Notes: generated from the letters alone by a model not told the origin. Counted from the stretch's first letter, positions 24,666 to 41,480 are shown. The stretch is DNA of 64,000 bases from an uncultured cyanobacterium (GCA_937922745.1 CALAJO010000006.1:8095-72094), one strand, 5' to 3'. Made by a program: numbers and translations.

Positions 24666-26876
24666 TCATAATTTCACGTCGCGCAGGTAGCAATGCAGGG
24701 CGTCTTCCAGCGGGGTCATCAGTTGGCCGCGCTCCGTGCCCAGGGCGCTATATAAGGGGCGCTTGGCGATAAACTGCATCTCTTCGCACGGGATGCCCAC
24801 CACTTTTTTGGAGTCCATACCGGACATCTGGGCCGCGAGACGGGCAAAGTCCGCCCAGGAAACCTCGCACGGATTGGTAATGTGCCAGATGCCGGACTCG
24901 CCGTCAATCAGGAGATCCAGCGTCGTGTTTACGAGATCCGGCACGTAGGTTGGGGAAATGATGGTGTCCTCGGCAGCCTGGAAGGGCTGGCCGGACTGGA
25001 TGCGCCGCAGGGCGATGGTGATGAAGTTAAAGTCGTCCCACGGCCCAAAAAAGGAGCTGGTGCGAATCACCAGGCTGGTGGGCAAAATGTCTAGAACCTT
25101 CTGCTCCGAAGCCGCCTTGGTTTCTCCATACACGTTCAACGGGCGCATTTCGTCGCTTTCCAGGTATGGTTTTCTCGCGCTGCCGCAGAACACCAAGTCC
25201 GATGAGAAGGTGACAAGCGGGATATTTAAGTCAGAGCAGGCTTTGGCCAGGTTTGCGGGGCCGGTTACGTTGGCCAGCCAGCAGATATCCTTTTCGTTTT
25301 CCGCGTCATCCACCCGCACATAACCGGCCGCGTTGATGACTGCCCAAGGCCGCAGCTTCGCCAGGCGCTGCCCCACCAGTTCCGGGGTGGAAATATCCAT
25401 ATGGGCGCGGCTCAACAGGTAATAAGGAATCCCGCGGATATCGCACATGCGGGCAAACGCTTTGCCCAACGTGCCATTTGCCCCCACAATCACGATGGGC
25501 CGAATCCCGATATGGCATTCCTGCGTGAGTTCACAGTTTTCCGTAATGCTGACGGCATGGCATGTTTTCTCCGCGCGGGAAGGGTAAAACACGCGGTCTT
25601 CCCGCCGCCACCAGCCTTCCTTGTCCAGGATGGGATGATCCGGCTTTTCACCGGTGGCATAGGTTTTAATCAGTTGCGCCAGGGCGGTGGGCCTGGGCTT
25701 GCTCCCGCGCATATCAAACACGCCAGGCTCATAGAACCCGTTGTCCTTGGTGACCAGGCAGTTCCAATCGTAAGCCCCCAGCAGCGACCAAGCGGTGACG
25801 GCCACCACCGGAACCCCTTCCTCTCGTAAGCATTCGGCCGCATCCCAGATTTCCTTCAGCCAACGGAGCTGCTCATCCCGGGTGCAGCCCAGGTGGGCTT
25901 CCGTTACGGCGACAGGCAGGCCGTAGCGCTCATAGGTTTCCTTCAGCAGGGTGCGATGGCCCGCATAGTCCTGTTGATGCACGCGGATGGCCTCGACATC
26001 GGCATACTGGTGCTTCCCGTTCCCGCCATGAAATTGCGGCGGGTAGCAGTCCATATTCTCGTCCAGGAAGCGATCGCTGGTGAGGTAGTGGTTAATCCCC
26101 ACCACGTCCGGCGGACAGGGATTGTTAAGAAACCAGTTGAGCGCTTCCACGCTGGCGCCGCAACTTAGCAAATATTGCCACATGGGCTTGTCCGGCGTCA
26201 GCTTGCCGCAAAGCAGGTCGTACGTCAACCAACGGCGCTCGTTCTCCAGGTCCGCCTGATATTGCAGAAGCGGTGTGCTGTAAACTTTCCCCAGGTCATC
26301 CGTCTGGATCAGCTTGGCATCGGGGTTCACTTCCCGAATGGCTCGCATGGCCAGCACCGTGCCCTTGCACTCGTTGAGCAGCGCCGTCACAAAGGTCTGA
26401 TCATCACGCCCATGGGGATACCAGTGGCCGTACATGCCACTAAACCGCGCCGTGGTCAAAGGTTCATTTACGGGTGTATAAAACTCAAGCCAAGGGTAAC
26501 GCCGGGCGACGGCCCCGGCATATTCGGCCAGTTTCTTCGGAAACGCCGGATCGACCAGGCTGGTTGACATGGGGCCGCTGCCATGATGCACCAGGCCTGC
26601 AATCGGGTTGATTCCCAGCTCGCGAAGCCTTGGCAAGCGTTCATCCAACCAGGACCAATCGGCGTTCTCAATCCCGTTGGGTGCGGTTCTCTCCCAGATG
26701 ACCGGGTAGCGAATGACCTTGATGCCCAATTCCGCAATCATATCCAGGTCGCTGATGCGGTAGGCATGACCATTGCGCGCCAACTGATCATAATACCGAT
26801 CGCCAACCCGGTTGACGGTACATTCGATTCCTGCCCACATTTGCAGTGGAACTGCCTGACTACTACGCATATTCAA
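24666..26876 (-). CDS. Fusion protein: N-terminal GH1-like (clan GH-A) glycosidase domain plus a C-terminal RmlD-like NAD(P)H-dependent sugar reductase domain
   Basis: N-terminal half has acid/base NEP (YTPVNEPLT), nucleophile-like VTEAHL and an FxW..DxFxW-like tail. C-terminal half has IVIVGANGTLG ... YGETKAASE ... SPTYVPDL, typical of dTDP-4-dehydrorhamnose reductase. Confidence 0.7.
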   Translation of the reverse strand: MNMRSSQAVPLQMWAGIECTVNRVGDRYYDQLARNGHAYRISDLDMIAELGIKVIRYPVIWERTAPNGIENADWSWLDERLPRLRELGINPIAGLVHHGSGPMSTSLVDPAFPKKLAEYAGAVARRYPWLEFYTPVNEPLTTARFSGMYGHWYPHGRDDQTFVTALLNECKGTVLAMRAIREVNPDAKLIQTDDLGKVYSTPLLQYQADLENERRWLTYDLLCGKLTPDKPMWQYLLSCGASVEALNWFLNNPCPPDVVGINHYLTSDRFLDENMDCYPPQFHGGNGKHQYADVEAIRVHQQDYAGHRTLLKETYERYGLPVAVTEAHLGCTRDEQLRWLKEIWDAAECLREEGVPVVAVTAWSLLGAYDWNCLVTKDNGFYEPGVFDMRGSKPRPTALAQLIKTYATGEKPDHPILDKEGWWRREDRVFYPSRAEKTCHAVSITENCELTQECHIGIRPIVIVGANGTLGKAFARMCDIRGIPYYLLSRAHMDISTPELVGQRLAKLRPWAVINAAGYVRVDDAENEKDICWLANVTGPANLAKACSDLNIPLVTFSSDLVFCGSARKPYLESDEMRPLNVYGETKAASEQKVLDILPTSLVIRTSSFFGPWDDFNFITIALRRIQSGQPFQAAEDTIISPTYVPDLVNTTLDLLIDGESGIWHITNPCEVSWADFARLAAQMSGMDSKKVVGIPCEEMQFIAKRPLYSALGTERGQLMTPLEDALHCYLRDVKL

Positions 26877-26958
26877 TTTCCTCGATTAATTTCTTTCCGC
26901 CCTGTTCATAAACGAAAGCGTTGCTCAAAATGGCAACGCTTTCGCTAGAATTTCTTTT

Positions 26959-29400
26959 TTACCGGCTTGGTGCCAGCGCCGCCTGGGTTGCAGAAGCCGT
27001 TGCAGCCGGCTTGCTGGCAACCTTCTCGCCCTTGATGTGCTTGAAGAGCGTTAAGGCCTGGGCCACAACCTGATCCATGTTGTAGTACTTGTACGTGGCC
27101 AGGCGTCCTACGAAGTAAACGTTGGGAAGCGCATCCGCCAGGGCCTTGTACTGGTTATAAATGTCGGCATTTTCCGGCTTTGGGATGGGATAGTAGGGAT
27201 CCCCTTCCGCGCGGGAGTATTCGTACACGATGCTGGTTTTCTCGTGCTTTTGCCCCGTCAGTTGCTTGAACTCCGTAACGCGCGTGTAATCGTTATCGTT
27301 CGGGTAGTTTACCACGGCCACCGGCTGATGCACTTCCTTGTCCAGCGTCTCGTGCTTAAACTCCAGCGAGCGGTAAGGCAGCTTGCCGTAACGGTAGTTG
27401 AAGAACTCATCGACCGGGCCGGTGTAGATAATCTTGCGATGGGGAATAATGCGCAGGATTTCCCGGTAGTCCGTGTTCAGCATAATTTTGATGTTGGGGT
27501 GGGACAGCATGTTCTCAAACATCCGGGTAAATCCGTGGAGCGGCATGGCTTGGTAACTGTCCGTAAAATAGCGGTCATCCGTGTTCGTCCGGGTGGGGAT
27601 TCTCGCGGTCACGCACTTGTCCAGTTCGGAGGGATCCATGCCCCACTGTTTGCGGGTATAGCCTTGGAAAAACATCTCGTACAACTCCCGCCCGACGGTG
27701 CTGACCACAACGTCTTCGGAAGTCTTGATCACGTCTATCTGCTCCGCCTTGGAGGCCAGGAAGTCCGCGACGCCCTGCTCGTCAAGGTTCAGGTTATACA
27801 GCTTGTTAATCGTGGTTCGGTTAATCGGGATGGGAACCAGTTGGCCGTCCACCTGTGCCAGCACGCGGTGTTCGTAATCCCGCCACTCGGTAAAGCGCGA
27901 GAGGTAATCGAAAACTTCCTTGGAGTTGGTGTGGAAGATATGTGGGCCGTACTTGTGTACCAGGATGCCATGATCATCGTAGTGGTCGTAAGCATTCCCG
28001 GCAATGTGCGGCCGGCGATCCACGATCAGAACCTTGTTGCCGTCACTGGCAAGGCGCTCGGCCAGAACGCTCCCGGCAAACCCGGCGCCCACAATCAGGT
28101 AATCGAACGTGCCTTCTTTTGTCTGCCAGCGTTCGCGCCTGGAAACCACCTTGTGATCCTGGATATTTTTGCGGTTAAGGATGCGGTTGATATTGCCACG
28201 CATCCCGGCCCAAGTTTTATCCCAGGAGTTCTGGGAGAGAAAGGCATCGGCCCGTTGCTGCCAGTCAAGATCCGTATGGACTTCCTCGAACATGGCATCC
28301 AGTGCAGCCACAAACGCTTCAGACGTGTCGGCAATCTTCACCAGGCGCAAGGCTTCATAAGGCACCACAACGTCTTTTATGGATGTGGAGACGATGCGCT
28401 TACCCGCAGCCAGGAATTCCGGCGTTTTGGTGGGGCTGATAAACTCGGTCGATTCGTTCTTGGCAAACGGCATCATCGCCATATCCCAGCCGGAGAGGTA
28501 TTGCGGCAGCTCTTTGTAATCCTTGCCGCCCAGGTAATGGATGTTGGGCAGTTGCGGCAAGGTTGCCGGATCGATCTTGACCACCGGCCCGATGATGACG
28601 TAATGCCAATCCGGGCGTTTTTCGGCAATCTCTCTCAGCAGGTCGATGTTCAACCGCTCGTCAATCACGCCGAAGAAGCCGATACGTGGGTGTGGAATAT
28701 GGGCCTGATCGGCCGGTTCGGTTTCCACATGCTTGGCTTGCTCGAAATGCGCGACATCCACGCTGCTGGGAAAGGCATGCACTTCCGGGTGATGCGGGCG
28801 CTTGGCTTCATACAGGCTTTGCCCGCCGGTAAACACCAGGTCGGCTACTTTAAACAGGTCGATTTCCCGTTCAATCAGTTCCGGTGGTGCGCCTTTAAAG
28901 GCCGCCAACTGATCCATACAGTCGTAGACGATGGCCATGGGCTTGAGATGGGCGCTAAACGCCATTGCCATCGGCGTGTAATACCATAAAACGTATTGGT
29001 TGATATCGTTCTCGGCAATAAACTCATCCAGCAGACGTTGCTGTTCGGCTTCGCACTCTGCGGGAGAAAGGCTTTCAGGCAGGTAGGGCACGACAACGAC
29101 CACGCCTTCGTTGTTGGGATGGCTCACATGAAGCATCGGCTCCGGGTGGGTTGTGCGAATGGGCTCCTCCACGAAAAATACCCGGCGCTCCCTGGCGCAG
29201 CGGCTCAGCAGATGTTGCGGTCGCTGGAAAACAAAATTCCAGCGCAAGTGGGAAAGGCAGATCAGATCGAATTTCTGTTCACCGTCCAGCAGCGTTTCCT
29301 CGTGCATTTTATGCGTGTCCAGCTTCGCCCGAATATCGACGACAAGATGATTTTTCTGTACATCGTTGTGGTTGTTTCCACCGTTTTGGTCGTTTGTCAT
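26959..29400 (-). CDS. glf: Fusion protein: N-terminal glycosyltransferase plus C-terminal UDP-galactopyranose mutase
   Basis: C-terminal ~390 aa: FAD motif YDYLIVGAGFAGSVLAERL, then HKYGPHIFHT and YTGPVDEFF, canonical for Glf. N-terminal ~400 aa is GT-like (FFGVIDERLNIDLL, YLGG). Confidence 0.8.
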   Translation of the reverse strand: MTNDQNGGNNHNDVQKNHLVVDIRAKLDTHKMHEETLLDGEQKFDLICLSHLRWNFVFQRPQHLLSRCARERRVFFVEEPIRTTHPEPMLHVSHPNNEGVVVVVPYLPESLSPAECEAEQQRLLDEFIAENDINQYVLWYYTPMAMAFSAHLKPMAIVYDCMDQLAAFKGAPPELIEREIDLFKVADLVFTGGQSLYEAKRPHHPEVHAFPSSVDVAHFEQAKHVETEPADQAHIPHPRIGFFGVIDERLNIDLLREIAEKRPDWHYVIIGPVVKIDPATLPQLPNIHYLGGKDYKELPQYLSGWDMAMMPFAKNESTEFISPTKTPEFLAAGKRIVSTSIKDVVVPYEALRLVKIADTSEAFVAALDAMFEEVHTDLDWQQRADAFLSQNSWDKTWAGMRGNINRILNRKNIQDHKVVSRRERWQTKEGTFDYLIVGAGFAGSVLAERLASDGNKVLIVDRRPHIAGNAYDHYDDHGILVHKYGPHIFHTNSKEVFDYLSRFTEWRDYEHRVLAQVDGQLVPIPINRTTINKLYNLNLDEQGVADFLASKAEQIDVIKTSEDVVVSTVGRELYEMFFQGYTRKQWGMDPSELDKCVTARIPTRTNTDDRYFTDSYQAMPLHGFTRMFENMLSHPNIKIMLNTDYREILRIIPHRKIIYTGPVDEFFNYRYGKLPYRSLEFKHETLDKEVHQPVAVVNYPNDNDYTRVTEFKQLTGQKHEKTSIVYEYSRAEGDPYYPIPKPENADIYNQYKALADALPNVYFVGRLATYKYYNMDQVVAQALTLFKHIKGEKVASKPAATASATQAALAPSR

Positions 29401-29738
29401 TATATACTCCCTATGTTGTAGACCTTACCGTTTAGAGAGGCTGTAAAGCACAGCCCAGCTAGACCTCCCTGCATCCAGAGGCCCGGTGTGTGTTACTTCT
29501 CTTCGCTTTGATATCAAAATTTGGGTTTAATCAACACTGAAACCAATAAAAAACCAAGTCTTGATATCCTTTCCGCCTGACTGCCAGAGGAACCGGCAGA
29601 TCAAACTCTCGCGAGATTATTATGTGTGGAACAGGGAAAAAATAGATTACCCAACAAGCCAATTGATAAGGCTCATCTGGACCCTTTAGCCCGATCGGTT
29701 AATCCATCCCTTTTATAAATGTATAGAGGCGGGTGGGA

Positions 29739-30956
29739 TTACAGTTCTCGCACGCCGGATTGGGGTTGCGTAACGTAAAACGAAACCGGGTATTCGAACT
29801 GCCGGTTATATTCCATCTCCAGGGTTTGCTTGAAACCTTCCAACGCATCAATCCGAACCAGGTTGACCGTGCAACCGCCAAATCCGCCGCCTGTCATTCG
29901 CGCACCGATAACCCCGTCCAAGCCTTGCGCCAGTTCCACCAGCAGATCCAGCTCGGCGCAACTGACCTCGTAATCCAGTTGCAAGGATTGGTGTGATGCG
30001 TTCATCAGTTGTCCAAGCCGCTCGGCATCGTGGTGCTTTAAAGCTTCGGCGGCGAAAAGGGTTCGTTCATTCTCCGTAATCACGTGGCGCATGCGCTTGC
30101 GGATGGTCGGATCAGGCAGTTGCGATTCGTATCGTTCAAACGCCTGGGTGGAAATATCCCGCAAGGCGGTAATGTCCGGCATAAACTGCTGGAAAAAGGC
30201 AACGCCGTCCTGGCATTGCCGGCGTCGTTCGTTATACGCCGAAGAGGCCAGCTCATGCTTGACGCCGGAATCCACAATCACAACCGCGATTCCCGGCAAG
30301 TCCAGCGGAATGGGCGTCGCCTCCAGTGTCCGGCAATCGATGAGCAGGGCGTGGCGCTGCTGGCCCATGGCGGTAATAAACTGGTCCATAATACCGCATT
30401 TCGTGCCGACGTACCGGTGTTCTGCCGACTGCCCGGCCAGGGCCAGCTTTTTCAGGTCTATGTCTGAGTATCCATTTAGCGACAACAAGGCAAATCCCAC
30501 GGAATTTTCCAGCGCCGCAGAGGAGGACAAACCGGAACCGACCGGGACATTGCTTTCAATCAGCAGATCCGCGCCGTTGATGCGCCAGCCGGATTCCTCC
30601 AGGCTTCGGGCTTCGCCTTCCACGTAGCTCAGCCAATCGTGCGGGTGGGACTGCAACGGCCCATCCAGGCTAAACTCGCGGGTTTCCTGGCGCTCGATGG
30701 AATGCACGCGAATCTTCCGGTCTGCGCGAGATCGTCCTGCAATGAGCGTGCCCCGGTTTATCGCCAGGGGTAGCACAAAGCCATCGTTGTAATCCGTATG
30801 CTCGCCAATGAGGTTGACCCGGCCAGGTGCGACGAAAAATCGCGGCCGGGCATCCCCGAACAAGCCCTGGAACAGGTTGCCCAGGGCAAGCGCGTCAAAG
30901 CTTTCCACCAGGTTAACAGGCTGTGCTGCCGTTGATGCGGACGTTTCCATCAACAT
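29739..30956 (-). CDS. galK: Galactokinase
   Basis: Galactokinase signature PGRVNLIGEHTDYN and GHMP motif PVGSGLSSSAA. Confidence 0.9.
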   Translation of the reverse strand: MLMETSASTAAQPVNLVESFDALALGNLFQGLFGDARPRFFVAPGRVNLIGEHTDYNDGFVLPLAINRGTLIAGRSRADRKIRVHSIERQETREFSLDGPLQSHPHDWLSYVEGEARSLEESGWRINGADLLIESNVPVGSGLSSSAALENSVGFALLSLNGYSDIDLKKLALAGQSAEHRYVGTKCGIMDQFITAMGQQRHALLIDCRTLEATPIPLDLPGIAVVIVDSGVKHELASSAYNERRRQCQDGVAFFQQFMPDITALRDISTQAFERYESQLPDPTIRKRMRHVITENERTLFAAEALKHHDAERLGQLMNASHQSLQLDYEVSCAELDLLVELAQGLDGVIGARMTGGGFGGCTVNLVRIDALEGFKQTLEMEYNRQFEYPVSFYVTQPQSGVREL

Positions 30957-31016
30957 CCTCTTCCCGATTACATGATTATGTGGATGCAGTATAGCGTAAA
31001 TTCTGCCGGCCGCCGA

Positions 31017-32651
31017 TTAGCCAACTGTGCCGGATACCGAACCCTGCTTTAACGAGGCCATTAAATCCGCGAAGACCGTGGTGGTAAAATTCCGCTTCTC
31101 GTAGCCGGGCCAGCTGACCATGCCCACCGGGTGCAGCTTCAGGTCCTTCGGGGAACCGGAAAGCGCATCGCCCCAGTTGAACTGATCCATCAGGCTGTAC
31201 CAGGTAAAGCCCAATACGGGAATGCCGAACTTGGGCAGTTGGGCCAGCTCCACCAGTTGCTTCATGCCCCACTCTTCGCTGCCGTGGTCGAAGAAGTTGG
31301 TTTCGGTATGCAGGATAGGGAGCTGGTAACGGTTCCAGTATTCCATGCAGATACGGGCCAGGCCTTTGCGGCGATCGGAGCGGATTTCGGCTTCGTATCC
31401 CTTCACGTCGGTCATGGTTAATTGCTCGGGATGGCCGGGCTTCACGATTTCGCACGCCATGTAGTAATCCACGCCGAAGACGGTATCGGCCTTCATGGTT
31501 TTGCCAAAGCGCCGCTCGAAGAGGATATGGTATTGCTTGATGGTTTCCAGCTCCACGATCAGGTGTTGTATATCGTCCGCCAGGTTGTCCTGACGCACGT
31601 AATGGCGCGCCATCCAGCGGTACATGTCGGTCTTCTGGAAGTCGTCCTCCAGCAGCCACTCGTGGCCCAGGATCAGGTCGCTTGCCAGGAACCGGTTAAA
31701 TTCGTTGAAGTGGAAGTCGTCCGGCTGGTGTTCGCAACTGTCGTTATGGATGAAGATGACGCGCCGGCCTTCCTCCTGAAGGTGGGCTTCAATCTCGAAG
31801 CGGGCCTTGAGGGCGGCCTTGGCAATCAGCAGCGCCCTACGAATAAAGTAGTGATCGTACTGCGGATGATCAAAGCTGCCCGGCATGGCTTCGTTCCATT
31901 TCACCGCGCTAAAGCGGTTGGTAATCATCGGCTCGTTGATGATGGTGATGGCGTCCAGCTTGGGCAGGTAGGTTTTAACGGCCTTCATCCCAAACTCGAT
32001 GAAATGGTTGGGCCAATCCGGGTTGAGAAAAACGCTTTCTTCCGGTTTCTCATCATTACGGTAAGCCGCTGGCAGGCCAAAGTGCAGCAAGTCCAGGCTC
32101 ACTTTTTTGTTGCGGGCCTTAAAGCGATCCAGGATATTGGTAAACACCTGCCAGTTGTCCTGTTCCACCATAATGTGGTTGGGCATGCCAAGGCGCACAT
32201 TCTCAATCTGGCACTCGTCCATGGCATCCAATTGGCGATCGAGGTGTTCGTCTTCGTAGATGCCGGTAAAAGCCAGCTGATCCCAACGCTCGCCTTCCGG
32301 GCTTTGCGGGTTGCTGCACTCAATCCCGGTCCAGAAGAAAGAGGAGAATGTTTCCTTGAACAGGGCAATGGTTTCCTGGTTCTCGGCGGCGCGCCGCTCA
32401 TCCGCATGGCGAACCGCGCCGTATTTTGCCTCGTTGATGTATTGGTTTTCCGGCTGGTGCAACTTTTTCTCCGCCCAGCGGTGGTAGTTGTGAATCTCGT
32501 GATCCAGTGGGGTGTCCCCAGTTGGCAGAACATTGATGTGGAGCAGATCTTCCGCGCGCTCCTCCGGCTCCACAATATGGAGGGGGGCAACGACTTGCAT
32601 TGGAATAACATTGTCCAGTGGCTTTTCAGCCTCAAACCCGCTGTGATTCAC
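31017..32651 (-). CDS. GH1-like (clan GH-A) glycoside hydrolase, paralogous to the N-domain of 24666..26876
   Basis: INEPMITNRF (acid/base) and ILHTETN (nucleophile), plus a GFTWYSLMDQFNWGD tail. Shares IECSNP/IECTVN N-terminal similarity with the fusion protein. Confidence 0.6.
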   Translation of the reverse strand: MNHSGFEAEKPLDNVIPMQVVAPLHIVEPEERAEDLLHINVLPTGDTPLDHEIHNYHRWAEKKLHQPENQYINEAKYGAVRHADERRAAENQETIALFKETFSSFFWTGIECSNPQSPEGERWDQLAFTGIYEDEHLDRQLDAMDECQIENVRLGMPNHIMVEQDNWQVFTNILDRFKARNKKVSLDLLHFGLPAAYRNDEKPEESVFLNPDWPNHFIEFGMKAVKTYLPKLDAITIINEPMITNRFSAVKWNEAMPGSFDHPQYDHYFIRRALLIAKAALKARFEIEAHLQEEGRRVIFIHNDSCEHQPDDFHFNEFNRFLASDLILGHEWLLEDDFQKTDMYRWMARHYVRQDNLADDIQHLIVELETIKQYHILFERRFGKTMKADTVFGVDYYMACEIVKPGHPEQLTMTDVKGYEAEIRSDRRKGLARICMEYWNRYQLPILHTETNFFDHGSEEWGMKQLVELAQLPKFGIPVLGFTWYSLMDQFNWGDALSGSPKDLKLHPVGMVSWPGYEKRNFTTTVFADLMASLKQGSVSGTVG

Positions 32652-32795
32652 CTTCTAAACCTCTCTGTGTGCTACCGCGTAAACCCGTTGAAACCAGACC
32701 AATCTGCATAATATAACCGATTATGCCATTAGTTTTCGTTTTGTCTACCGATTTCTTGAAGGAATTTCGGGATTTTTTGGATTTTTTTTCGCGGT

Positions 32796-34127
32796 TTACC
32801 GAGCGTTTGGTTCAAGCGGACTCTTCAGTACAATGATATTTCCCTTCAGGACTGCGTTTTGGGCTTTGGCGGGCGCATGCGCCGAAGACCAAAAAATGAT
32901 GCCATGATCGTAATAATTGTGGATTGCTTCTGGCATGGGAAATCCCAGGTAACCTGCGTAAATGTCGCGGACGGTGGAAATGTACTGATCCGGCCGGCCG
33001 ATGTCGCTCCAGTAAAACGGCTCCTGCAACATTTGCGCATAAATCGGCCGCTTGGGGTCGGCAGCTTCATCATGCTGGGCCAGCAGGCCGGGGAAAAAGT
33101 CCATCGCATAATCGAACTCCGGGCTGGTCTGCCATTTACGCTGCCCGGCCTCCAGGAATAACGGGTAAACCTGTGGTGACAGCACATAAAACCCGATACT
33201 GCCCAGTCGGCTTGGCCCTGCTTCCGCCAGCGTCGGCTTTTCCTTGAAGGACAGCACAAACCCGGATTCTTCATCCGCATGGCTGCGATCCGTCACGACG
33301 ATGGCCATCTGGCTCACCTGGTCATCGGAGATATGCCGCACACCAATGCTGACCAGCGGATCCTGTTGGCGATGCGCGTTTAAAAAGGCGCTTAGGTTGG
33401 CATTGGTCACGGCATCCCCCTGCATAATCAAGATGGGCTTGTCCGGGTCAATCCGGTTTTGTTCCAGCGCCTTGACCAGGCCGCCCGCCGTACCGGAGGG
33501 TTGATCTTCGTCGATATAAATAAATTCCAGCCCTTCCACGGCTGCCAGTTGCGCCTTTAAAACGTCGGGCTTATAAAAGGTATTGATGATTATTTTTCGA
33601 ATGCCGTGGGATTGGAGATGCCGGGCCAGCATCGTGATTACGGAATCTTCTCCCACCAGAGGGGCGCTGGGCTTGGAATACCCGGTGACATCGCCGGAAA
33701 CCGGCACAAATCGGCTGGCCAACCCGGCTCCCAGGATCATTGCCTGATCGGTGACGGTTTGAATTTGAGCGGGTTTTTGCGGAATCTGCGGCGAGCTGAC
33801 CCGCCCCTGGATGATATCGCCCGGCATGTCCAACTGCGTGTCGTTCAGCCGTATCTGGCTGCCGGGGAGGGCAATGTAGGTGAGCTGCCCCGTCTTGACG
33901 ATGCCAAAGAAGCCGCCTTTTTCATTAAGGAAGCGGACCTGGGTGGTGGCGTCCTCCACCTGCCGAACGGATGCCAGGATCTGGTGCGGCCCAAACCGTG
34001 TGGAGTCCGGCTCCGGGTTCCATAGCGTGGTTTTCTGCCAGCCGGGGGCATCCTGCTCGGTTCTGCCTTCCACGGCGGTTTTAACCTGGGGATGTTTTTC
34101 CAGCGTTACGGATCCGAATGTCTGCAT
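32796..34127 (-). CDS. Sugar-1-phosphate nucleotidyltransferase with ~110 aa N-terminal and ~150 aa C-terminal extensions
   Basis: NTP_transferase core MILGAGLASRF ... GTAGGL ... IMQGD. Confidence 0.75.
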   Translation of the reverse strand: MQTFGSVTLEKHPQVKTAVEGRTEQDAPGWQKTTLWNPEPDSTRFGPHQILASVRQVEDATTQVRFLNEKGGFFGIVKTGQLTYIALPGSQIRLNDTQLDMPGDIIQGRVSSPQIPQKPAQIQTVTDQAMILGAGLASRFVPVSGDVTGYSKPSAPLVGEDSVITMLARHLQSHGIRKIIINTFYKPDVLKAQLAAVEGLEFIYIDEDQPSGTAGGLVKALEQNRIDPDKPILIMQGDAVTNANLSAFLNAHRQQDPLVSIGVRHISDDQVSQMAIVVTDRSHADEESGFVLSFKEKPTLAEAGPSRLGSIGFYVLSPQVYPLFLEAGQRKWQTSPEFDYAMDFFPGLLAQHDEAADPKRPIYAQMLQEPFYWSDIGRPDQYISTVRDIYAGYLGFPMPEAIHNYYDHGIIFWSSAHAPAKAQNAVLKGNIIVLKSPLEPNAR

Positions 34128-34364
34128 GGCCTCTCATCCTTCAGCATCACGAAAAACTTGATGGGCAATCGTCATCCCATCTATCATTCCCGATGGGAAT
34201 GGCGCATGCAATTGAACAGTCGGTTATCTTTTTTTCCCGTAAATTATGAGAGAGTATTAAAGGTAAATAATAAAGGGTCGGTGCAGGGCAGGAACAGGCC
34301 CTGCGCAACCAGCAAACTTTTTGACTGTTTCTTCATGTTCTGATTAAAAGGAGTTCAAATCATC

Positions 34365-35378
34365 ATGCTCTTAGTCACAGGCGGCGCAGGATACATTGGA
34401 AGCCATTTCGTAAAGACGTACCTGGATACCCATCCGCAGGCGCAAGTGGTGGTCGTGGACGACCTGTCCGAAGGGCACCGCGAGGCCTTGGCCTTTTCAG
34501 ACCGGATTCGCTTTATCCAGGAAGATATCGGCAATGTGGAGGGGATGATCCAGGTTCTGCAATCGCAGGGGATTGAGGCCATCGTGCATTTTGCCGCCAG
34601 TTGCTACGTCGGCGAATCGCAAACGAATCCCACCAAGTATTTCCAAAACAACGTCGTTAAGACGCTCAACCTCTTCAAGGCCATGGATCAGGCCGGTGTG
34701 AAGCGAATCGTCTTTTCCTCCACCTGCGCCACCTACGGCAACCCGGTGCGCATGCCGCTGGATGAAACGCACCCGCAAAACCCCATTAATATCTACGGCC
34801 TCACCAAGCTGATGATCGAGCAGGCGTTGCGCGGCTACTGCGAAACCCTGGGCTGGTCCGCGTTTGCCCTGCGCTACTTTAATGCCGCAGGGGCGGATGA
34901 GAGCGGCCTCATCGGGGAGCTGCACGACCCGGAAACCCATCTGATTCCGCTGGTATTGCGGGCGGCGCAAGGCAAGAGCAAGGCCATCGACATTTACGGC
35001 GAGGACTATGACACGCCGGACGGCACATGCATCCGCGATTATATCCACGTCACCGACCTGGCCCACGCGCACATCAAGGCGTTGGAGAAGCTGCAAGCCA
35101 GCACCGGCTTCGATGCCATTAATCTGGGGACGACCCATGGCGCGTCAGTCAAGGAGATTATCGCCATTTGCGGGGAAGTTACCGGCAAGCCCATCCCGGT
35201 CAATGTGGCCGGCCGTCGTCCTGGGGATCCGCCACGGCTGGTGGCCAACGCCGACAAGGCCTTGAACGTGTTGGGCTGGAAGACGCAGTTTGACCTGCGC
35301 ACCATCATCCGTACCGCATGGGCATGGGAAGAAGGAGGAAAGTATGCAACCGACAGGCTCACCGCTAGCCACGCTTAA
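34365..35378 (+). CDS. galE: UDP-glucose 4-epimerase
   Basis: LVTGGAGYIGSH, catalytic YGLTK and the HVTDLAHAH region. Confidence 0.9.
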   Translation: MLLVTGGAGYIGSHFVKTYLDTHPQAQVVVVDDLSEGHREALAFSDRIRFIQEDIGNVEGMIQVLQSQGIEAIVHFAASCYVGESQTNPTKYFQNNVVKTLNLFKAMDQAGVKRIVFSSTCATYGNPVRMPLDETHPQNPINIYGLTKLMIEQALRGYCETLGWSAFALRYFNAAGADESGLIGELHDPETHLIPLVLRAAQGKSKAIDIYGEDYDTPDGTCIRDYIHVTDLAHAHIKALEKLQASTGFDAINLGTTHGASVKEIIAICGEVTGKPIPVNVAGRRPGDPPRLVANADKALNVLGWKTQFDLRTIIRTAWAWEEGGKYATDRLTASHA

Positions 35379-36561
35379 CCGCGAGCTGGAAACCCGCTTT
35401 GATAACGCCGCCATGCAAGGGGCCTTGCAGCCCTTCCTGCACTTCGTTAACCAGGCCATGCCGTCGTTAAAGTCGGTGCCGGACTTGAGCGTCGTCGAGA
35501 GTTCCCTGGCCACCGAGCCGGGTGACGAGGGAACGCTTACGGTTGCAGCCCTTCAGTCCGGACCGGTGAGGCTTACCGTGAACCATGAGCTGGGGATTCG
35601 CCTGTATTACCACGGGAAGCAAGTGACGACGGACCGGGAGAATATCCCCTATCATTACCCATGGTTTAGCATCGATCCGGCGGATCCGGAGAAGATTGCG
35701 GCGTATGCCATCAAGCATGTGTCCCGCGGCTCCCGTGCGGATAGCTGGCCGGAAAGCCAATGGCCCCTGGTTCAGGGTGTGCTTCAGGGGGAGCAGAACT
35801 GGCCGCCGCGCAGTGTGGCTTTTGGCCCTTACGATTTGGACCTGGTGGAGGATGGCCCGGTGCGCGCCATTCAGGTGGGCCTTCCCTCGCAGGATGGGTT
35901 ACCGGTGGAACCGAATGCTTATGGCGTCATCCCGCGGGGGTTGTTCAGCGTCAACCCGGATCAATCCGTGGTGATGGCGTGGCAGAACGAAAACCACTCC
36001 GAGAAGGGGTTGCACTGGTGCGCCTGGTTTATCCTGGGGTTTGCGATGCCCAGGGCCAACCCGTCCTACTCCGATCCCACGGTGATCTTCGCGATTCCCG
36101 ACAGCGAGGCGGATGACCCGTCCACAAACCGGATGACCAAGGTTTGGAACTACTTTGACATCAACGGCCGCAGGATGGCGTTAATTAACCCGCACGTCAA
36201 AACGCTCAACGAGCCGTTCAAGAAGTTTTATCGGGATGTGAACTGGACAGTGGTGGCCGAAAAGGGCGCTGACCATCTCATCCTGACGCGGAGTATGCTG
36301 CGCCATGATGAGCAGTTTTTCCCGTTCCTGGAGCATGGGCAGTACTTCATCGAGGCTGAGCATACGGGCCGCCTGGCCGCGCCGGGGGAGAAAAGCACCG
36401 TTGTCGTCCGCCACGATTTTGTGAAGCTGGCCGACCTGACCCAGGGGAAACTCACCCAGTTCAGCACCTCCCCGGCGTTTGTCGAGGAAGTCCAGGCCAT
36501 CCTGGCGGAACTGGTCGCCCTGGATGACGCCGGCCGTCTGATTGCTGTCGTTTCAGAATAA
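35344..36561 (+). CDS. Hypothetical 406 aa protein with no recognisable domain. The track ORF is trimmed to the ATG at 35344, preceded by GGAGGAAAGT.
   Basis: ORF with a good RBS. Co-oriented with galE, which it overlaps, and with the following dioxygenase. Confidence 0.5.
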   Translation: MQPTGSPLATLNRELETRFDNAAMQGALQPFLHFVNQAMPSLKSVPDLSVVESSLATEPGDEGTLTVAALQSGPVRLTVNHELGIRLYYHGKQVTTDRENIPYHYPWFSIDPADPEKIAAYAIKHVSRGSRADSWPESQWPLVQGVLQGEQNWPPRSVAFGPYDLDLVEDGPVRAIQVGLPSQDGLPVEPNAYGVIPRGLFSVNPDQSVVMAWQNENHSEKGLHWCAWFILGFAMPRANPSYSDPTVIFAIPDSEADDPSTNRMTKVWNYFDINGRRMALINPHVKTLNEPFKKFYRDVNWTVVAEKGADHLILTRSMLRHDEQFFPFLEHGQYFIEAEHTGRLAAPGEKSTVVVRHDFVKLADLTQGKLTQFSTSPAFVEEVQAILAELVALDDAGRLIAVVSE

Positions 36562-36654
36562 GTTGGATTTTCATCATTTTTTATCGCACCCATTTTCTTG
36601 CGGTTGAATATGGTTTATTCTTTATTGTTCAAAATCTGGAAGAGGGGCTCGTTT

Positions 36655-37500
36655 ATGTCGACACAATCTCAATCCGCTATCCGTAACCGCTATACCGAAG
36701 CCGAAATCGAAGGTTATACCCAACAAATACTGCGGGATGGCTTTTGCATCCTGAAGGGGCATTTTCCCAAGGAGAAGCTGCAAACCTGGAAAGAGGCGTT
36801 CGATCCGTTAATGGAACAGCGGATCCAGGATGGCACGGCCTCCGAGCGGGGGCCGAAACGGTTTTACATTTCCCTGCCGTTTACCATGCCCTTTGCCGAC
36901 CCGGCCATTTACGAGGACCCCGATATTCTGGCAATCCTGGAACGTCTGGGCGGGGATATCGTGATGCCGGAGCTGGCCAGCGATACCCCACTGCAAGGAT
37001 CCGACTTCCAGGTGATCCACCGGGATCATCTGCAGATGTCGCCGGATCTGCCGGATCGTGACCCGGCCCTGCCGTTCCAGTTTGCCGTCAACTTTCCGCT
37101 GGTGGATGTGACGCTGGCGAACGGCCCGTTTGAAGTGGCCCGCGGCACCCACCTCCTCACCGATGCCGAGTGCAAGGAACGCATCCGCTCCGGGGAGATG
37201 GAGACCCAACTGGAGCCGCTGATGATGGAAGTGGGCGATGTAATGATTCGGGATGTGCGTGCCCTGCACCGCGGCACCCCCAACCACACCGAAACCCCAC
37301 GCACCATGATTGTTGTGGGCTACAACTGCGCAGAACACCAACGCCCCCAGTTAAAGATTCATATTCCCCAAGCGGAGTTTAACAAGCTCTCCGGGCGCGG
37401 GCGGCAGTTGCTTCGACTGAACCCCGTTGTGGAGTCCCTGGATGCCATCCGGCCGTCCGAAACCTACTCCAACCTCTACTTCCTGGAGGATGCGGATTAG
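36655..37500 (+). CDS. PhyH-family Fe(II)/2-oxoglutarate-dependent dioxygenase
   Basis: HRDH...(D) facial-triad region (QVIHRDHLQ) and a distal HRGTPNHT, typical of the PhyH fold. Confidence 0.65.
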   Translation: MSTQSQSAIRNRYTEAEIEGYTQQILRDGFCILKGHFPKEKLQTWKEAFDPLMEQRIQDGTASERGPKRFYISLPFTMPFADPAIYEDPDILAILERLGGDIVMPELASDTPLQGSDFQVIHRDHLQMSPDLPDRDPALPFQFAVNFPLVDVTLANGPFEVARGTHLLTDAECKERIRSGEMETQLEPLMMEVGDVMIRDVRALHRGTPNHTETPRTMIVVGYNCAEHQRPQLKIHIPQAEFNKLSGRGRQLLRLNPVVESLDAIRPSETYSNLYFLEDAD

Positions 37501-37543: not shown

Positions 37544-38818
37544 TCATTTTATGGAAACCAGTTCCCACGGGATATAGCACAGGATGGTGGTTCCTTTGGG
37601 CGTTGTATCCGTGGCATCCCCTGCCGTGGCGCTTTGGATGACCAGCCGGCCCCCGGCTGACGAGAGCAACTGGCTCATTGCGGGCAAGCCAAACCCACTG
37701 CCGCTGGCCATCTTCTCTGCATCGGGCGCTTTATTTAAATCAGGCATCCTGTCTGCCGGAATGCCTAACCCGTTATCCGTTACCTTAAACACGAGCATGG
37801 TTTGATCTTTGGAGGGGAACCCAGACCCCCAGTGATTGGCTTTTATTTTGGCCTGTCCAATGTCCAGCGCGATGGTTTTTTGAGGCTCATCGGGATCGCT
37901 GTAGCGGATGGCATTGGCAACCAGGTTGGAAAGCACGATGAAGAACCAGCCGGGTGTCTTCAACGCCAGCGCCTCGTCTCTCTTAAGCGTGGGAGATGTA
38001 GACAGGGAAACGTTTTGGGCTACCATCATCTGGGCATAGATCTGGTGAATATCAGACATGGTTTCGTACAGGGTTGGATTTTGATTGGGCGCGGCGAGCA
38101 TATAAGAGGATACGGTGGCCGACTTAAGGCGCAAAATGTTCAGCGCAGCCATCAGGATTTCGAAATGCCTGGCTTGCTGGGCTTCCGTGTTATCGGGCCG
38201 GTTCATCATTTCGGCCTGCCCAACGATTGCCGCAATCGGGGTCTTGAACTCGTGGGTGACCGTGCCCACAAAATGCCTGTCTTTTGTGGACAAGGATTGG
38301 CTGAAAGTCTGTACAAACATGGCTATGGCATCCAGGCGAATTCCCATCTCCAGGAACGACTGGGCTTGCTTCAGGCGGAGTTTTGCAATCGCCTCGTCCG
38401 TGTTTTGCCCTTTTGGTGGCATCGCTTTACGTCTGGCCAGTTTTTCAATCTCACGGGTTGAAGCGTGAATCGTGAGCAAGCTGCGCTCAATGGTTTTGCT
38501 CACCATATCGCACAGGCTGGTGGTGATTTCCTTGGCGACAGGGCTATCAAATAACGTAGTTTGATTTTGGGCGGCAAACTTTACAGCCTGGGCTCCCGGC
38601 AGTACTGTTTGACGGGAAGGCAGGATCTGCCCGGAAGGAAAATTTAAGCTGGGTTTGCCCGCTTGAGCGAATGGTTGCCGATATGGCGACTTGCTGCAAT
38701 ACAGCGCGCCCGGGGGCATCAGTGCGGATGATATCATGGGGAAATCGTCTCTTCTTTTTATAAGGGGGTTAAGCGAGGAATAAGGAAAGGTTAAACCATA
38801 TAAACCTCTCAATGCCAA
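37544..38818 (-). CDS. Soluble sensor histidine kinase with no transmembrane region and no cognate response regulator nearby
   Basis: H-box HEFKTPIAAIVGQAEMM, N-box LVANAIRYS, G-boxes DNGLGIP and GSGFGL. TTG start at 38818; an alternative ATG lies at 38736. Confidence 0.75.
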   Translation of the reverse strand: MALRGLYGLTFPYSSLNPLIKRRDDFPMISSALMPPGALYCSKSPYRQPFAQAGKPSLNFPSGQILPSRQTVLPGAQAVKFAAQNQTTLFDSPVAKEITTSLCDMVSKTIERSLLTIHASTREIEKLARRKAMPPKGQNTDEAIAKLRLKQAQSFLEMGIRLDAIAMFVQTFSQSLSTKDRHFVGTVTHEFKTPIAAIVGQAEMMNRPDNTEAQQARHFEILMAALNILRLKSATVSSYMLAAPNQNPTLYETMSDIHQIYAQMMVAQNVSLSTSPTLKRDEALALKTPGWFFIVLSNLVANAIRYSDPDEPQKTIALDIGQAKIKANHWGSGFPSKDQTMLVFKVTDNGLGIPADRMPDLNKAPDAEKMASGSGFGLPAMSQLLSSAGGRLVIQSATAGDATDTTPKGTTILCYIPWELVSIK

Positions 38819-38892
38819 AAATTGCCTGCTCTAAAAAGTTGTGCGGATTGCAGAGGAGGCAAACTAAAAAGTGAGAAAACAAACCCATTTTT

Positions 38893-39014
38893 GGCGGATA
38901 AGTCCACACCTCTTTTCTGCAAATAAATTTTGAACGAACGAAGCCATTTTTTTGGTCGGATAAGTCCACACCTCTTTTCTGTAAATGAATTTTGAACGAA
39001 CGAAGCCATTTTTT
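38893..39014. repeat. Tandem direct repeat, 2 x 61 bp
   Basis: GG(c/t)CGGATAAGTCCACACCTCTTTTCTG(c/t)AAAT(a/g)AATTTTGAACGAACGAAGCCATTTTTT occurs twice, back to back. Confidence 0.75.
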
Positions 39015-39188
39015 GCCGGACAGTAAATGATAGGAAAGATGATTCAACCCGTGATTTACGCATGAGAGACCCTGCAATGAGGGGGGAAACCTGGAAGGCA
39101 CGCACTTAGATAGTATAAAGCCTGTTTTTTTATATAATTTATATATTTAATGAATAATTAAGATTTAGGATCGCCTGAAATTCCCCGG

Positions 39189-40223
39189 CTAGGGGTTTTT
39201 GAGATAGCGTTTGATGTAGTAGGTTTCCACCAGCAGGCCCAGGGTGATGGCGGCAGGCACCGCCAGAATGACGCCCGGCACACCCATGAGCAATCCGCCT
39301 GTCAGCAGGCTGATGAGGATCCAGAACGGATGGATGCCGACCGAGCGACCCAGAATGTAGGGGGAGAGGACGTAGCTTTCAATCTGCTGCACCACGAAAT
39401 AAACCAGCGCGGCCCAAAGCGCCATGGTGGGGCTTTGCCCAAGGGCAATTACGATGCCGAAGGTGGAAGCAACCAGCGGGCCGACAATCGGGATAATATC
39501 GAGCAAAAAGACAATGAGGCCCAGGATGAAGGCATAGGGAACCCCCACGATGGACAGGCCCAGCCAGGTAAGCCCCCCGGTCAGCAGCATTACGATAAAC
39601 TGGCCCCGAACGTATGTGCCTACGTTTAGCGCGGTTTCACGCAGCAGGCAGCGAACTTCCTCCTGCCGGGACTGCGGGATAAGGCGAAGGAAAACGGACT
39701 CGAAATAGGTGGCATCCGACAGCAGGTAGAAGGAGAAGATAAGGATGCTGAGCAGGCTGATGGCCGCGTGGAGGACAGTGAAAATGTAATTGAGGCCAAA
39801 CAGGGCCACGCTTACCACGCGGTTGGTAATATTGCCGATATAGTTCGAAAGGTTCGTTAACAGGGCGGGATCGGACTTGAGAAACGGGATATTATAAAGC
39901 CGCTCTGTCGCATTCTCAGCGTATTCCGGCAAACGCTCCAGGAATTGCTGCCCTTCCGTGTAAAGAACATTGCCCAGCATGGAAATAATGCCGGCGGATA
40001 TAAGGATGAGCAGCAGGTACACCATCAGGATGCTGAGCTTACGGGGCAGGCGCGTCGTGGTAATGCGGTTGGCAATGGGATATAACGCCGTGGCAAGCAG
40101 CAAGGCAATCAGCAACAGGATCACCGCTTCGCGGATCATGAAAAGAACCCAGCAAAGCAGCAAAAACCCAACAAAAAGCATAATGGTCTTAAACGAAATA
40201 CTGACCTGGTGATGGGTTTCCAA
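39189..40223 (-). CDS. AI-2E family transporter (UPF0118/PerM)
   Basis: Multi-TM protein; N-terminal LLIALLLATALYPI and overall topology match the AI-2E family. Confidence 0.75.
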   Translation of the reverse strand: METHHQVSISFKTIMLFVGFLLLCWVLFMIREAVILLLIALLLATALYPIANRITTTRLPRKLSILMVYLLLILISAGIISMLGNVLYTEGQQFLERLPEYAENATERLYNIPFLKSDPALLTNLSNYIGNITNRVVSVALFGLNYIFTVLHAAISLLSILIFSFYLLSDATYFESVFLRLIPQSRQEEVRCLLRETALNVGTYVRGQFIVMLLTGGLTWLGLSIVGVPYAFILGLIVFLLDIIPIVGPLVASTFGIVIALGQSPTMALWAALVYFVVQQIESYVLSPYILGRSVGIHPFWILISLLTGGLLMGVPGVILAVPAAITLGLLVETYYIKRYLKNP

Positions 40224-40688
40224 TCTATGCCCCTTTCAGTTTAACCGCAATGGTGAGTCGATTATGTCACAAAGCCATACCCATCGGAATTCATCCATCA
40301 GCTAGACCAGGCAGCGGGGTTGTATTTGGTTGCACCGCACAGGTGCAGGTGGGCTGTTGTGCAAACAGGGGGTCGATTATTCAGCTTACATTAAATGGCG
40401 CAAAAAAAGCGTTATTCGGAAATGCGTCCGTTAATCCATGATTCAAAAGAATCAAATTATGAATAACCGTAAATTTGTCTTGTGTCCAAAAAACCAGGCT
40501 GGATGGCGATTTAAGGCAATGTATACAAAGGTTAAGAAAATCGGTAGTCGAATTAAAGTTCCCTTTTTCCAAGTCGAATACCAAATCATAAGTTCTCACA
40601 CAATCAGTCTCGGAGCAGAGATAAACACTCAGACCAACAATCCCAAAGCTGTAGGTTATCAAAGAGAAAAGAAATAGGAGTACTGTAG

Positions 40689-40880
40689 ATGAAAAAGTTT
40701 CTGAATTCCAAAAAGCGTGGACAAGGTGTAATTGAGTACGCTGGCGCAATGATTGTAGCTGCACTGATTGTGGCCGCCGTACTGGTTGTAGGCCGCGACG
40801 GCATGACCAACGTATACAACAGCATCTTCGATGGCGTAGAGAACTTCTTCAATACGCAATCCAACGATCTGAGCAGCTAA
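40689..40880 (+). CDS. flp: Flp/Fap family pilin
   Basis: Flp motif RGQGVIEYAGAMIVAALIV (G-x-x-x-x-EY), followed by a hydrophobic helix. Confidence 0.75.
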   Translation: MKKFLNSKKRGQGVIEYAGAMIVAALIVAAVLVVGRDGMTNVYNSIFDGVENFFNTQSNDLSS

Positions 40881-40995
40881 TAACAATTAAAGGCTTACCG
40901 GCTAGAGAGGGGCAACCCTCTCTAGCCCCCTTTATACCCCTCTCAACAAATATGGGTTATTCCACACTTACAGTTATTCAGATGAGATAAGGCTT

Positions 40996-41472: not shown

Positions 41473-41480
41473 AGTCACTT

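Follow-up and report, generated by a model that had tools for sequence, protein, structure and literature searches.

A 64,000-nucleotide stretch of DNA from an uncultured cyanobacterium (GCA_937922745.1, CALAJO010000006.1:8095-72094), here called the window, contains at positions 24666-37500 a cluster of eight intact genes forming two divergent operons. The cluster was delimited by listing the open reading frames (ORFs) of the whole 64-kb window and by profile scans. Its predicted products are enzymes of galactose and galactofuranose (Galf) metabolism, together with a protein that resembles galactose mutarotases in its predicted structure and a dioxygenase of the PhyH family. The features are as follows.

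24666-26876, minus strand: fusion of a GH1-like domain and an RmlD-like short-chain dehydrogenase/reductase (SDR), here GH1-RmlD (PF00232, 45.5 bits; PF04321, 202 bits)
26959-29400, minus strand: fusion of a TuaH-like GT4 glycosyltransferase (GT) and UDP-galactopyranose mutase (Glf), here GT-Glf (PF13692, 32.6 bits; PF03275, 266.6 bits; TIGR00031, 391.4 bits)
29401-29738: non-coding spacer of 338 bp between GT-Glf and galK (ORF scan)
29739-30956, minus strand: galactokinase GalK (TIGR00131, 388.9 bits; PF10509, PF00288, PF08544)
31017-32651, minus strand: stand-alone GH1-like protein of 544 aa (PF00232, 20.6 bits)
32796-34127, minus strand: sugar-1-phosphate nucleotidyltransferase with an N-terminal extension of ~125 aa (PF00483, 88 bits)
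34128-34364: divergent intergenic (putative promoter) region between the operons, with a sigma-70-like site
34365-35378, plus strand: UDP-glucose 4-epimerase GalE (TIGR01179, 413.3 bits)
35344-36561, plus strand: mutarotase-like protein of 405 aa (no Pfam or NCBIfam match; predicted structure)
36598-37500, plus strand: PhyH-family Fe(II)/2-oxoglutarate (2OG) dioxygenase, likely start ATG 36655, 281 aa (PF05721, 55 bits)

The minus-strand operon is transcribed in the order nucleotidyltransferase, GH1-like, galK, GT-Glf, GH1-RmlD, the plus-strand operon in the order galE, mutarotase-like gene, PhyH. An initial annotation of this DNA had described a UDP-Galf glycan island at 29739-37500. All the genes it named are present and intact, but its bounds were too narrow: two of the eight genes, GT-Glf and the second GH1-like gene, lie outside them, and it overlooked the RmlD-like reductase domain that the second GH1-like protein carries. 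No signal peptide or transmembrane helix was predicted in any of the eight proteins, all of which are thus predicted to be soluble.

The cluster recurs in relatives belonging to the Vampirovibrionales, with identities ranging from 47 to 75%. One locus (L001) has the same gene order as the window. In L002/3 and L006/7 the genes for GT, Glf, GH1-RmlD and the mutarotase-like protein are on one strand, those for galK, the GH1-like protein and the nucleotidyltransferase on the opposite one, and the mutarotase-like gene directly follows GH1-RmlD in L002 and L006, with overlapping start and stop codons in L006; galK is convergent or close by in these loci. L010 carries the mutarotase-like, nucleotidyltransferase, GH1-like and galK genes in one direction, followed by unrelated NAD-biosynthesis genes. 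L009 consists of a GH1-like gene, a gene fusion of GalK with the mutarotase-like protein, then PhyH, and L015, a contig of 6.8 kb, has galT, galK and the mutarotase-like gene with PhyH convergent downstream and no mutase. The genes grouped by the initial annotation are therefore co-conserved in relatives, the dioxygenase included, and the lack of co-conservation that would have refuted that annotation was not observed. Judged by these gene orders, which recur from one relative to another, the genes have not come together by chance.

Putative galactose salvage genes and the core shared with photosynthetic cyanobacteria

GalK and GalE score well above the cutoffs of their models (226.65 bits for TIGR00131 and 262.3 bits for TIGR01179). 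The galactokinase is 46% identical to E. coli GalK, and the epimerase is 75% identical to the L001 protein. Searches of the 64-kb window by tblastn found neither galT (queries: the E. coli and L015 GalT proteins) nor a canonical galM. The nucleotidyltransferase, which the initial annotation had put in the place of GalT, is syntenic with galK in L001, L002/3, L006 and L010, in agreement with that proposal. Its best match in the PDB is a UTP-glucose-1-phosphate uridylyltransferase (8x7s, E 2e-14), followed by GDP-mannose pyrophosphorylases; it reaches no NCBIfam equivalog cutoff, the best model being that of a mannose-1-phosphate guanylyltransferase (68 bits vs 440). The nucleotide-binding motif GAGLASR (G-x-G-x-x-x-R) is invariant in four orthologues, and the N-terminal extension of ~125 aa is conserved in part. 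We propose that this enzyme makes UDP-Gal from galactose-1-phosphate (Gal-1-P). L015 has a classical GalT instead, in a galT-galK-mutarotase-like operon. The co-conservation of the nucleotidyltransferase with galK, together with the classical GalT of L015, would fit a non-orthologous replacement of GalT by the nucleotidyltransferase in this lineage.

The 544 aa GH1-like protein scores just below the PF00232 cutoff of 22.6 bits (its L009 orthologue scores 26.5 bits) and approaches no equivalog cutoff. It is a paralogue of the GH1 domain of GH1-RmlD, with 23% identity (E 3e-11), and among the loci examined it occurs only in the Vampirovibrionales. Six orthologues all keep N239-E240-P241 and T449-E450-T451-N452. 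By sequence, the two catalytic Glu residues, acid/base and nucleophile, are kept in both GH1-like proteins.

The mutase domain of GT-Glf exceeds the TIGR00031 cutoff of 303.75 bits, which is equivalog-level evidence, and the UDP-Galf branch recognised by the initial annotation thus stands, with a GT4 enzyme fused to the mutase. The same fusion occurs in L001, Nostoc and Microcoleus; in L002 and L006 the two domains are encoded by adjacent separate genes. GH1-RmlD probably starts at ATG 26870, giving a protein of 734 aa with a GH1-like (beta/alpha)8 domain at about 1-440 and an RmlD-like NAD(P)-dependent SDR domain at about 460-720. The GH1 domain is over the 22.6-bit cutoff, approaches no equivalog cutoff either, and displays VNEP and VTEA Glu motifs. 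The RmlD-like domain is under the equivalog cutoff of TIGR01214 (207.7 bits vs 224.05) and keeps GANGTLG (GxxGxxG) and YGETK (YxxxK). No rmlA, rmlB or rmlC was found in the cluster or in the relatives.

Homologues of GH1-RmlD number in the thousands, and the best 120 are full-length and at least 60% identical, those with a named source belonging to Nostoc, Calothrix, Scytonema, Microcoleus and similar genera; full-length orthologues in Nostoc, Calothrix, Scytonema and Microcoleus share 61-64% identity with it. The gene order is PhyH, GT-Glf fusion, GH1-RmlD, GalE-like, small cupin and major facilitator superfamily (MFS) transporter in Microcoleus FACHB-SPT15, where galK is 8 kb away, and galK, cupin, PhyH, GH43, GT-Glf, GH1-RmlD and GalE-like in Nostoc DSM 114161. 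Identities of the Nostoc and Microcoleus proteins to those of the window are 62-67% for GT-Glf and GH1-RmlD, 48-50% for GalE (the epimerase after GH1-RmlD) and 38-53% for PhyH. PhyH, GT-Glf, GH1-RmlD and GalE also stand together in five contigs of cyanobacterial metagenome-assembled genomes (MAGs), without GalK nearby. Because Nostoc and Microcoleus carry this gene set at such identities, the core module is either conserved across the cyanobacterial clade or exchanged within it. Our literature searches found no paper on the gene cluster, the GH1-RmlD fusion or a link between PhyH and Galf.

Some further observations concern this core. The GH1-RmlD of the window is only 58-59% identical to that of some Vampirovibrionales relatives, vs 62-67% for GT-Glf and GH1-RmlD in the comparison with Nostoc and Microcoleus, and the fused state of GT-Glf is common to the window and the photosynthetic lineages. 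These sequence comparisons hint that the core module has been passed laterally between members of the clade. The small cupin (124-125 aa, weak PF07883 match; L011:2136-2513 and L013:13381-13755) is 65% identical between Nostoc and Microcoleus, adjoins galK and PhyH in the Nostoc cluster and the epimerase in the Microcoleus cluster, and is missing from the window. Possibly this protein, too, belongs to the cyanobacterial module, for instance as something similar to a keto-sugar isomerase. The GH43 glycosidase near PhyH in the Nostoc cluster (L011:4570-5583) has parallels in five other PhyH loci, where a GH43 gene is clustered (e.g. L080:11281-13206). Family GH43 includes furanosidases.

The mutarotase-like protein and the dioxygenase

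The gene whose first 35 bp coincide with the end of galE encodes a protein of 405 aa (406 codons including the stop). It had been described as a 406 aa protein without recognisable domain, which is correct as far as Pfam and NCBIfam are concerned, but structure prediction, which the initial annotation had suggested, gave a confident model with a known fold. The AlphaFold (AF2) model, built from a nine-sequence alignment, has a mean predicted local distance difference test score (pLDDT) of 83 and a predicted TM-score (pTM) of 0.87. With this model as query, Foldseek found B. subtilis GalM (E 4e-8, probability 1.0), the TM-scores to GalM, 0.46/0.56, being modest. By this model the protein has the galactose-mutarotase fold (beta-supersandwich). 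The fold is not confined to mutarotases, it is found also in GH174 fucanases and in non-catalytic domains. In a 25-sequence alignment G130, R132, four Trp residues, E338, E340 and S352 are invariant. E338 and E340 are on a late strand, roughly at the relative position of the catalytic Glu as estimated from the alignment. The catalytic residues of E. coli GalM are H104, H175 and E309.

The family is rare. Nine of its proteins occur in a set of 5.8 billion, in which a second search with a profile brought no further members; an exhaustive profile search of 1.84 billion cluster representatives yielded 30. A metagenome scan with the alignment gave no match, and a broader alignment contained no stretch of sufficient conservation for such a scan. 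The family profile matched no PDB sequence at E values up to 10, and comparison with E. coli GalM by hhalign returned a probability of 0.4%. The only hint from sequence was a weak match of one distant homologue to DUF4380 (E 0.017). In the GTDB set relatives of the 405 aa protein are confined to a single species genome, a Vampirovibrionaceae MAG whose proteins are 57-75% identical to those of the cluster. By this nearest genome, the window would come from a relative of the predatory bacterium Vampirovibrio. The Vampirovibrionaceae are part of the Melainabacteria, a sister lineage of cyanobacteria that is not photosynthetic.

What points to the function of this protein is the company of its gene. 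The mutarotase-like gene clusters with galK in seven of nine distinct loci; in L009 (P0010) the two are a single 813 aa GalK::mutarotase-like fusion, in L015 the gene comes after galT-galK, i.e. in the position of galM in E. coli galETKM, and in L001, as in the window, it overlaps galE. The substrate of GalK is alpha-D-galactopyranose and retaining GH1 enzymes release the beta anomer, hence a mutarotase would be expected in a cluster of this kind. Most likely the 405 aa protein does the job of GalM, and the family would then be a second lineage for this role, unrelated to GalM by sequence. The term "Leloir-independent" used in the initial annotation consequently goes too far, the pathway appears to be GalT-independent rather than wholly outside the Leloir scheme, with a protein of predicted galactose-mutarotase fold that behaves like GalM in its genomic contexts. 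Distant members (P0011-P0030, P0158 and L016; 19-26% identity) have long low-complexity or hydrophobic N-terminal extensions and keep R132, E338, E340 and the Trp residues. These proteins probably have a different function and are possibly exported. We did not use the distant homologues as support for a role in galactose metabolism, since that in L016 (8001-9335) shows no gal context.

The PhyH dioxygenase has the facial triad H122-x-D124 and H205 and the 2OG-binding R216, all invariant across the Vampirovibrionales and cyanobacterial orthologues. Its closest solved relative is the sugar-modifying kanamycin B dioxygenase KanJ (E 2e-11). No terminator was found between the mutarotase-like gene and PhyH in the window. 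Orthologues adjoin the mutarotase-like gene in two other Vampirovibrionales contigs (L009, 67% identity; L015, 63%), and they stand beside GT-Glf in seven cyanobacterial loci (L011, L013, L022, L024, L027, L031, L036), the identity to the window protein being 53% in Microcoleus and 38% in Nostoc.

A metagenome scan brought 80 further PhyH orthologue loci (44-55% identity), of which the 45 with at least 4 kb of flanking sequence were used for counting. Five of these, on low-GC contigs of cyanobacterial MAGs, contain GT-Glf, GH1-RmlD and GalE, and two further short contigs share this neighbourhood. In 23 of the 45 the neighbours include parts of a sugar ATP-binding cassette (ABC) importer of the YtfQRT/Gaf type: a binding protein with 42% identity to E. 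coli YtfQ and with YtfQ as its best NCBIfam model, an ATPase that best matches YtfR, and two permeases. The scores are under the equivalog cutoffs, thus this is family-level evidence. In 12 loci the gene immediately before PhyH, in the same orientation, encodes a permease, and in L069 (9021-11835) PhyH is located between the permease and binding-protein genes with overlapping stop and start codons. A LacI regulator is divergent from PhyH in eight loci, and a canonical PF01263 aldose 1-epimerase (E 2e-43) is directly downstream of it in six. The orthologues inside or just after importer operons come from high-GC bacteria (L069, L020, L026, L032, L035, L040, L043-L045, L049, L052, L055).

Transporters of the Gaf/YtfQ type take up D-galactose and/or L-arabinose specifically in the furanose form (PMC10191376). 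That paper does not describe furanose metabolism downstream of Gaf-type uptake, our literature searches found nothing on the fate of the furanose after uptake by YtfQ/Gaf, and we found no description of a role for a dioxygenase in operons of this type. The PhyH family is tied to furanose sugars in two independent ways, by mutase neighbours in cyanobacteria and by furanose importers elsewhere, and it is linked to importers of free furanose as often as to the mutase cluster; the hydroxylation of the glycan that the initial annotation had thought possible is conjecture. By these gene neighbourhoods the dioxygenase belongs to a furanose-associated family. In both settings PhyH is paired with a protein of the mutarotase fold, a canonical one in the importer loci and the new family in the Vampirovibrionales, which lends independent support to the GalM-like reading of the 405 aa protein. 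The two components that the initial annotation singled out as undescribed are therefore not arbitrary unknowns but a sequence-novel mutarotase-fold protein and a furanose-associated dioxygenase.

Proposed pathway and competing explanations

On balance we think it somewhat probable that 24666-37500 is a cytoplasmic galactose/galactofuranose cluster built of three layers: a salvage layer, so far seen only in Vampirovibrionales, a core layer common to photosynthetic cyanobacteria, and the dioxygenase. What such a cluster most likely does is recycle galactose into UDP-Galf. All enzyme activities are predicted from sequence, and the substrates, the direction of the flux and the reaction of the dioxygenase are what we infer. 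A retaining GH1-like beta-glycosidase would free beta-galactose, and the mutarotase-fold protein would supply GalK with the alpha-pyranose anomer, perhaps also opening galactofuranose. GalK would produce Gal-1-P, from which the extended nucleotidyltransferase, acting in place of GalT, would make UDP-Gal; GalE would interlink UDP-Gal and UDP-Glc. UDP-galactopyranose mutase acts on UDP-galactopyranose (UDP-Galp), which the GT4-mutase fusion would convert to UDP-Galf before transfer to a soluble acceptor. The GH1-like/RmlD-like fusion may trim or redox-edit the resulting product, and the KanJ-like dioxygenase may oxidise the galactofuranose unit, either free or glycosidic. More speculatively, the RmlD-like reductase could reduce a keto sugar left by the dioxygenase, by analogy with KanJ/KanK.

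Several observations weigh against this picture. GT4 enzymes are retaining and would give the rare alpha-Galf linkage. The next-best matches of the nucleotidyltransferase are GDP-mannose and ADP-glucose enzymes, and its specificity is putative. At the level of sequence nothing connects the mutarotase-like family with PF01263 or E. coli GalM, and there is no invariant His in the 25-sequence alignment; with no invariant His and no profile likeness to GalM or PDB sequences, the canonical His/His/Glu chemistry may be absent from it. Close homologues in L005 and the P0004 contig and the distant one in L016 lie away from gal genes, and the GalK fusion is known from a single 5-kb assembly from one sample. 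PhyH is missing from L001, L002/3 and L006, some 15 of its 45 loci are without any such sugar-related neighbours, and the Gaf transporters may carry L-arabinofuranose and not Galf.

The cluster might instead be purely catabolic and serve to burn galactosides of algal prey by a GalT-independent, pyrophosphorylase-type route, in which the nucleotidyltransferase would run forward on Gal-1-P and in reverse on UDP-Glc in concert with GalE, the GH1-like protein, the mutarotase-like protein and GalK, and the mutase and glycosyltransferase would have a separate function alongside. The salvage set of four genes standing alone in L010, the galT-galK-mutarotase-like operon lacking a mutase on the 6.8-kb L015 contig, and the occurrence of PhyH orthologues elsewhere in LacI-regulated sugar-import operons, a catabolic setting, would all agree with this. 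We nevertheless regard it as unlikely: the salvage genes adjoin the mutase module in the window, L001, L002/3 and L006/7, the mutarotase-like gene directly follows GH1-RmlD in two of these loci, GalK, GalE and PhyH are retained next to GT-Glf in photosynthetic cyanobacteria, and UDP-galactopyranose mutase has no known catabolic role. A different objection concerns the 405 aa protein, which could be a glycoside hydrolase or lyase, e.g. a galactofuranosidase, or a sugar-binding accessory protein built on a mutarotase-like supersandwich. Its invariant R132, E338, E340 and four Trp residues, with no invariant His, would suit a glycosidase or a binding site, the TM-scores to GalM are modest, and the distant members with their N-terminal extensions are outside gal contexts. 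The GalK fusion and the galM position after galT-galK speak for a mutarotase instead, as does the pairing of the PhyH family elsewhere with PF01263 epimerases, which suggests displacement by an analogue, and we hold the hydrolase or binding-protein explanation to be rather improbable.

That the dioxygenase is a functionally unrelated neighbour seems very unlikely to us. PhyH is absent downstream of the mutarotase-like gene in the three relatives mentioned above and about one third of the orthologue loci are orphans, but its adjacency is kept in L009 and L015, it stands beside GT-Glf in seven cyanobacterial loci, it is embedded in furanose-importer operons in many other bacteria, and no terminator precedes it in the window. 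A stray neighbour was rejected on account of this recurrent synteny. A conventional surface-polysaccharide locus (O-antigen, capsule or extracellular polysaccharide), of which Glf, a GT, GalE and an RmlD-like domain are typical ingredients, is extremely improbable. There is a single GT, the RmlD-like domain shares its protein with a glycosidase-like barrel and has no RmlA, RmlB or RmlC nearby, and neither the window cluster nor the syntenic loci contain Wzx/Wzy, an ABC exporter, an initiating (polyprenyl-phosphate) transferase or a chain-length regulator. The lack of export machinery and the predicted solubility of all eight proteins led us to reject a classical O-antigen or extracellular polysaccharide locus. 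The "glycan island" of the initial annotation is unproven, nothing in a cluster devoid of export and polymerisation machinery and of any predicted membrane or secreted protein pointing to a polymeric or surface glycan; the interpretation given by that annotation is, as a whole, partly supported.

If the reading as a galactose/galactofuranose cluster is carried further, the PhyH subfamily could be the first furanose-dedicated dioxygenase, acting on D-galactofuranose and/or L-arabinofuranose, and with its mutarotase-fold partner and GH1-RmlD could constitute an undescribed cytoplasmic pathway that oxidatively edits or recycles a metabolite containing Galf and is conserved from Vampirovibrionales to Nostocales. 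This extension is doubtful, but if true it would explain the fate of the galactofuranose and arabinofuranose imported by YtfQRT/Gaf transporters, and if the dioxygenase acts on Galf, both the fate of imported furanose and the product of the cyanobacterial cluster become directly testable. The results have other implications. They propose a testable role for a protein family that sequence methods cannot place, they suggest that a nucleotidyltransferase has replaced GalT in one non-photosynthetic lineage related to cyanobacteria, they bring out a conserved, uncharacterised cyanobacterial gene set (PhyH, GT4-mutase, GH1-RmlD, GalE and GalK), and they connect one Fe/2OG dioxygenase family with furanose sugars by two independent lines of genomic evidence. 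Galactofuranose, which to our knowledge is absent from animals, is a drug and diagnostic target.

Non-coding regions, surroundings and comparison with known systems

The spacer between GT-Glf and galK (29401-29738) has only short ORFs of at most 43 aa, none of at least 60 aa lying wholly inside it, and only weak inverted repeats; it could contain an internal promoter. In the divergent spacer the sigma-70-like site is at 34158-34187 on the plus strand, and a GCAGGGC...GCCCTGC hairpin precedes galE. The window region 34128-34364 and L001:8670-9012 share a 9-bp element, ATGCAATTG, which contains the palindrome CAATTG. We do not claim a conserved operator in the divergent promoter, one 9-bp element shared by two sequences is too weak for that. 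Downstream of GH1-RmlD, 78 bp away and on the same strand, is a 216 aa ORF (23938-24588, minus strand) without Pfam match. Its product has a clear signal peptide, none of the fetched relatives contains an equivalent, and the ORF was rejected as a cluster member, being probably outside the cluster.

Upstream of the cluster (17511-23293, plus strand) lies an AddB/AddA-like nuclease-helicase pair (PD-(D/E)XK nuclease and UvrD helicase). After the cluster, 37544-42545 encodes a histidine kinase and an AI-2E family transporter, both on the minus strand, and Tad/Flp pilus genes (TadE-like, RcpC/CpaB); AI-2E transporters are near the cluster in L002/L003 too. The G+C content is ~0.45-0.54 in the first 18 kb of the window and ~0.55-0.60 over 18000-64000, with a jump in GC skew at 18-20 kb and an HNH endonuclease gene (14123-14848) in the low-GC part. 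The sole Rfam match in the window is a thiamine pyrophosphate (TPP) riboswitch (RF00059, 55496-55610, plus strand, 71.5 bits), and no tRNA was found in it.

It is instructive to compare the cluster with known systems. The resemblance to E. coli galETKM lies in GalK and GalE, which are true equivalogs, and in the mutarotase-like gene of the relatives, which follows galT-galK or is fused to GalK; the 35-bp overlap of galE with the mutarotase-like gene in the window (translational coupling) echoes the epimerase-mutarotase fusion of yeast Gal10. The window differs from both in having no GalT but a PF00483 nucleotidyltransferase that co-varies with galK, and in a mutarotase-fold protein with no detectable relation to PF01263 and no invariant His. 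The pyrophosphorylase (Isselbacher/UDP-sugar pyrophosphorylase) route of galactose utilisation occurs in plants, Leishmania and some bacteria and archaea with promiscuous sugar-1-phosphate nucleotidyltransferases. The logic would be the same here, Gal-1-P and NTP giving NDP-Gal without GalT, the specificity of the window enzyme being putative; however, this enzyme is of the RmlA/GlgC/ManC type (PF00483) with a unique N-terminal extension of ~125 aa, and does not belong to the USP family.

With mycobacterial Glf/GlfT and Klebsiella galactan I the cluster shares an equivalog mutase with a directly linked GT. Most of the Galf transferases known are inverting enzymes of family GT2, but the GT of the window is of the retaining GT4 type and forms one protein with the mutase, and in place of a lipid carrier or export system the partners are the GH1-RmlD fusion and the dioxygenase. 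The KanJ/KanK pair (dioxygenase and NADPH-dependent ketoreductase) offers an analogy, in that a putative sugar-oxidising Fe/2OG enzyme and an SDR-type reductase would work in one cluster, although the window has no aminoglycoside genes or implied amino sugar, and its reductase, an RmlD-like domain, is joined to a GH1-like barrel in one protein. The importers GafABCD and YtfQRT-YjfF (PMC10191376) are connected to the window through the PhyH orthologues that are embedded in, or divergent from, such operons and point to D-Galf or L-arabinofuranose. The window itself is without a transporter of this kind, and there the link to the furanose is its synthesis by the mutase and not its uptake.

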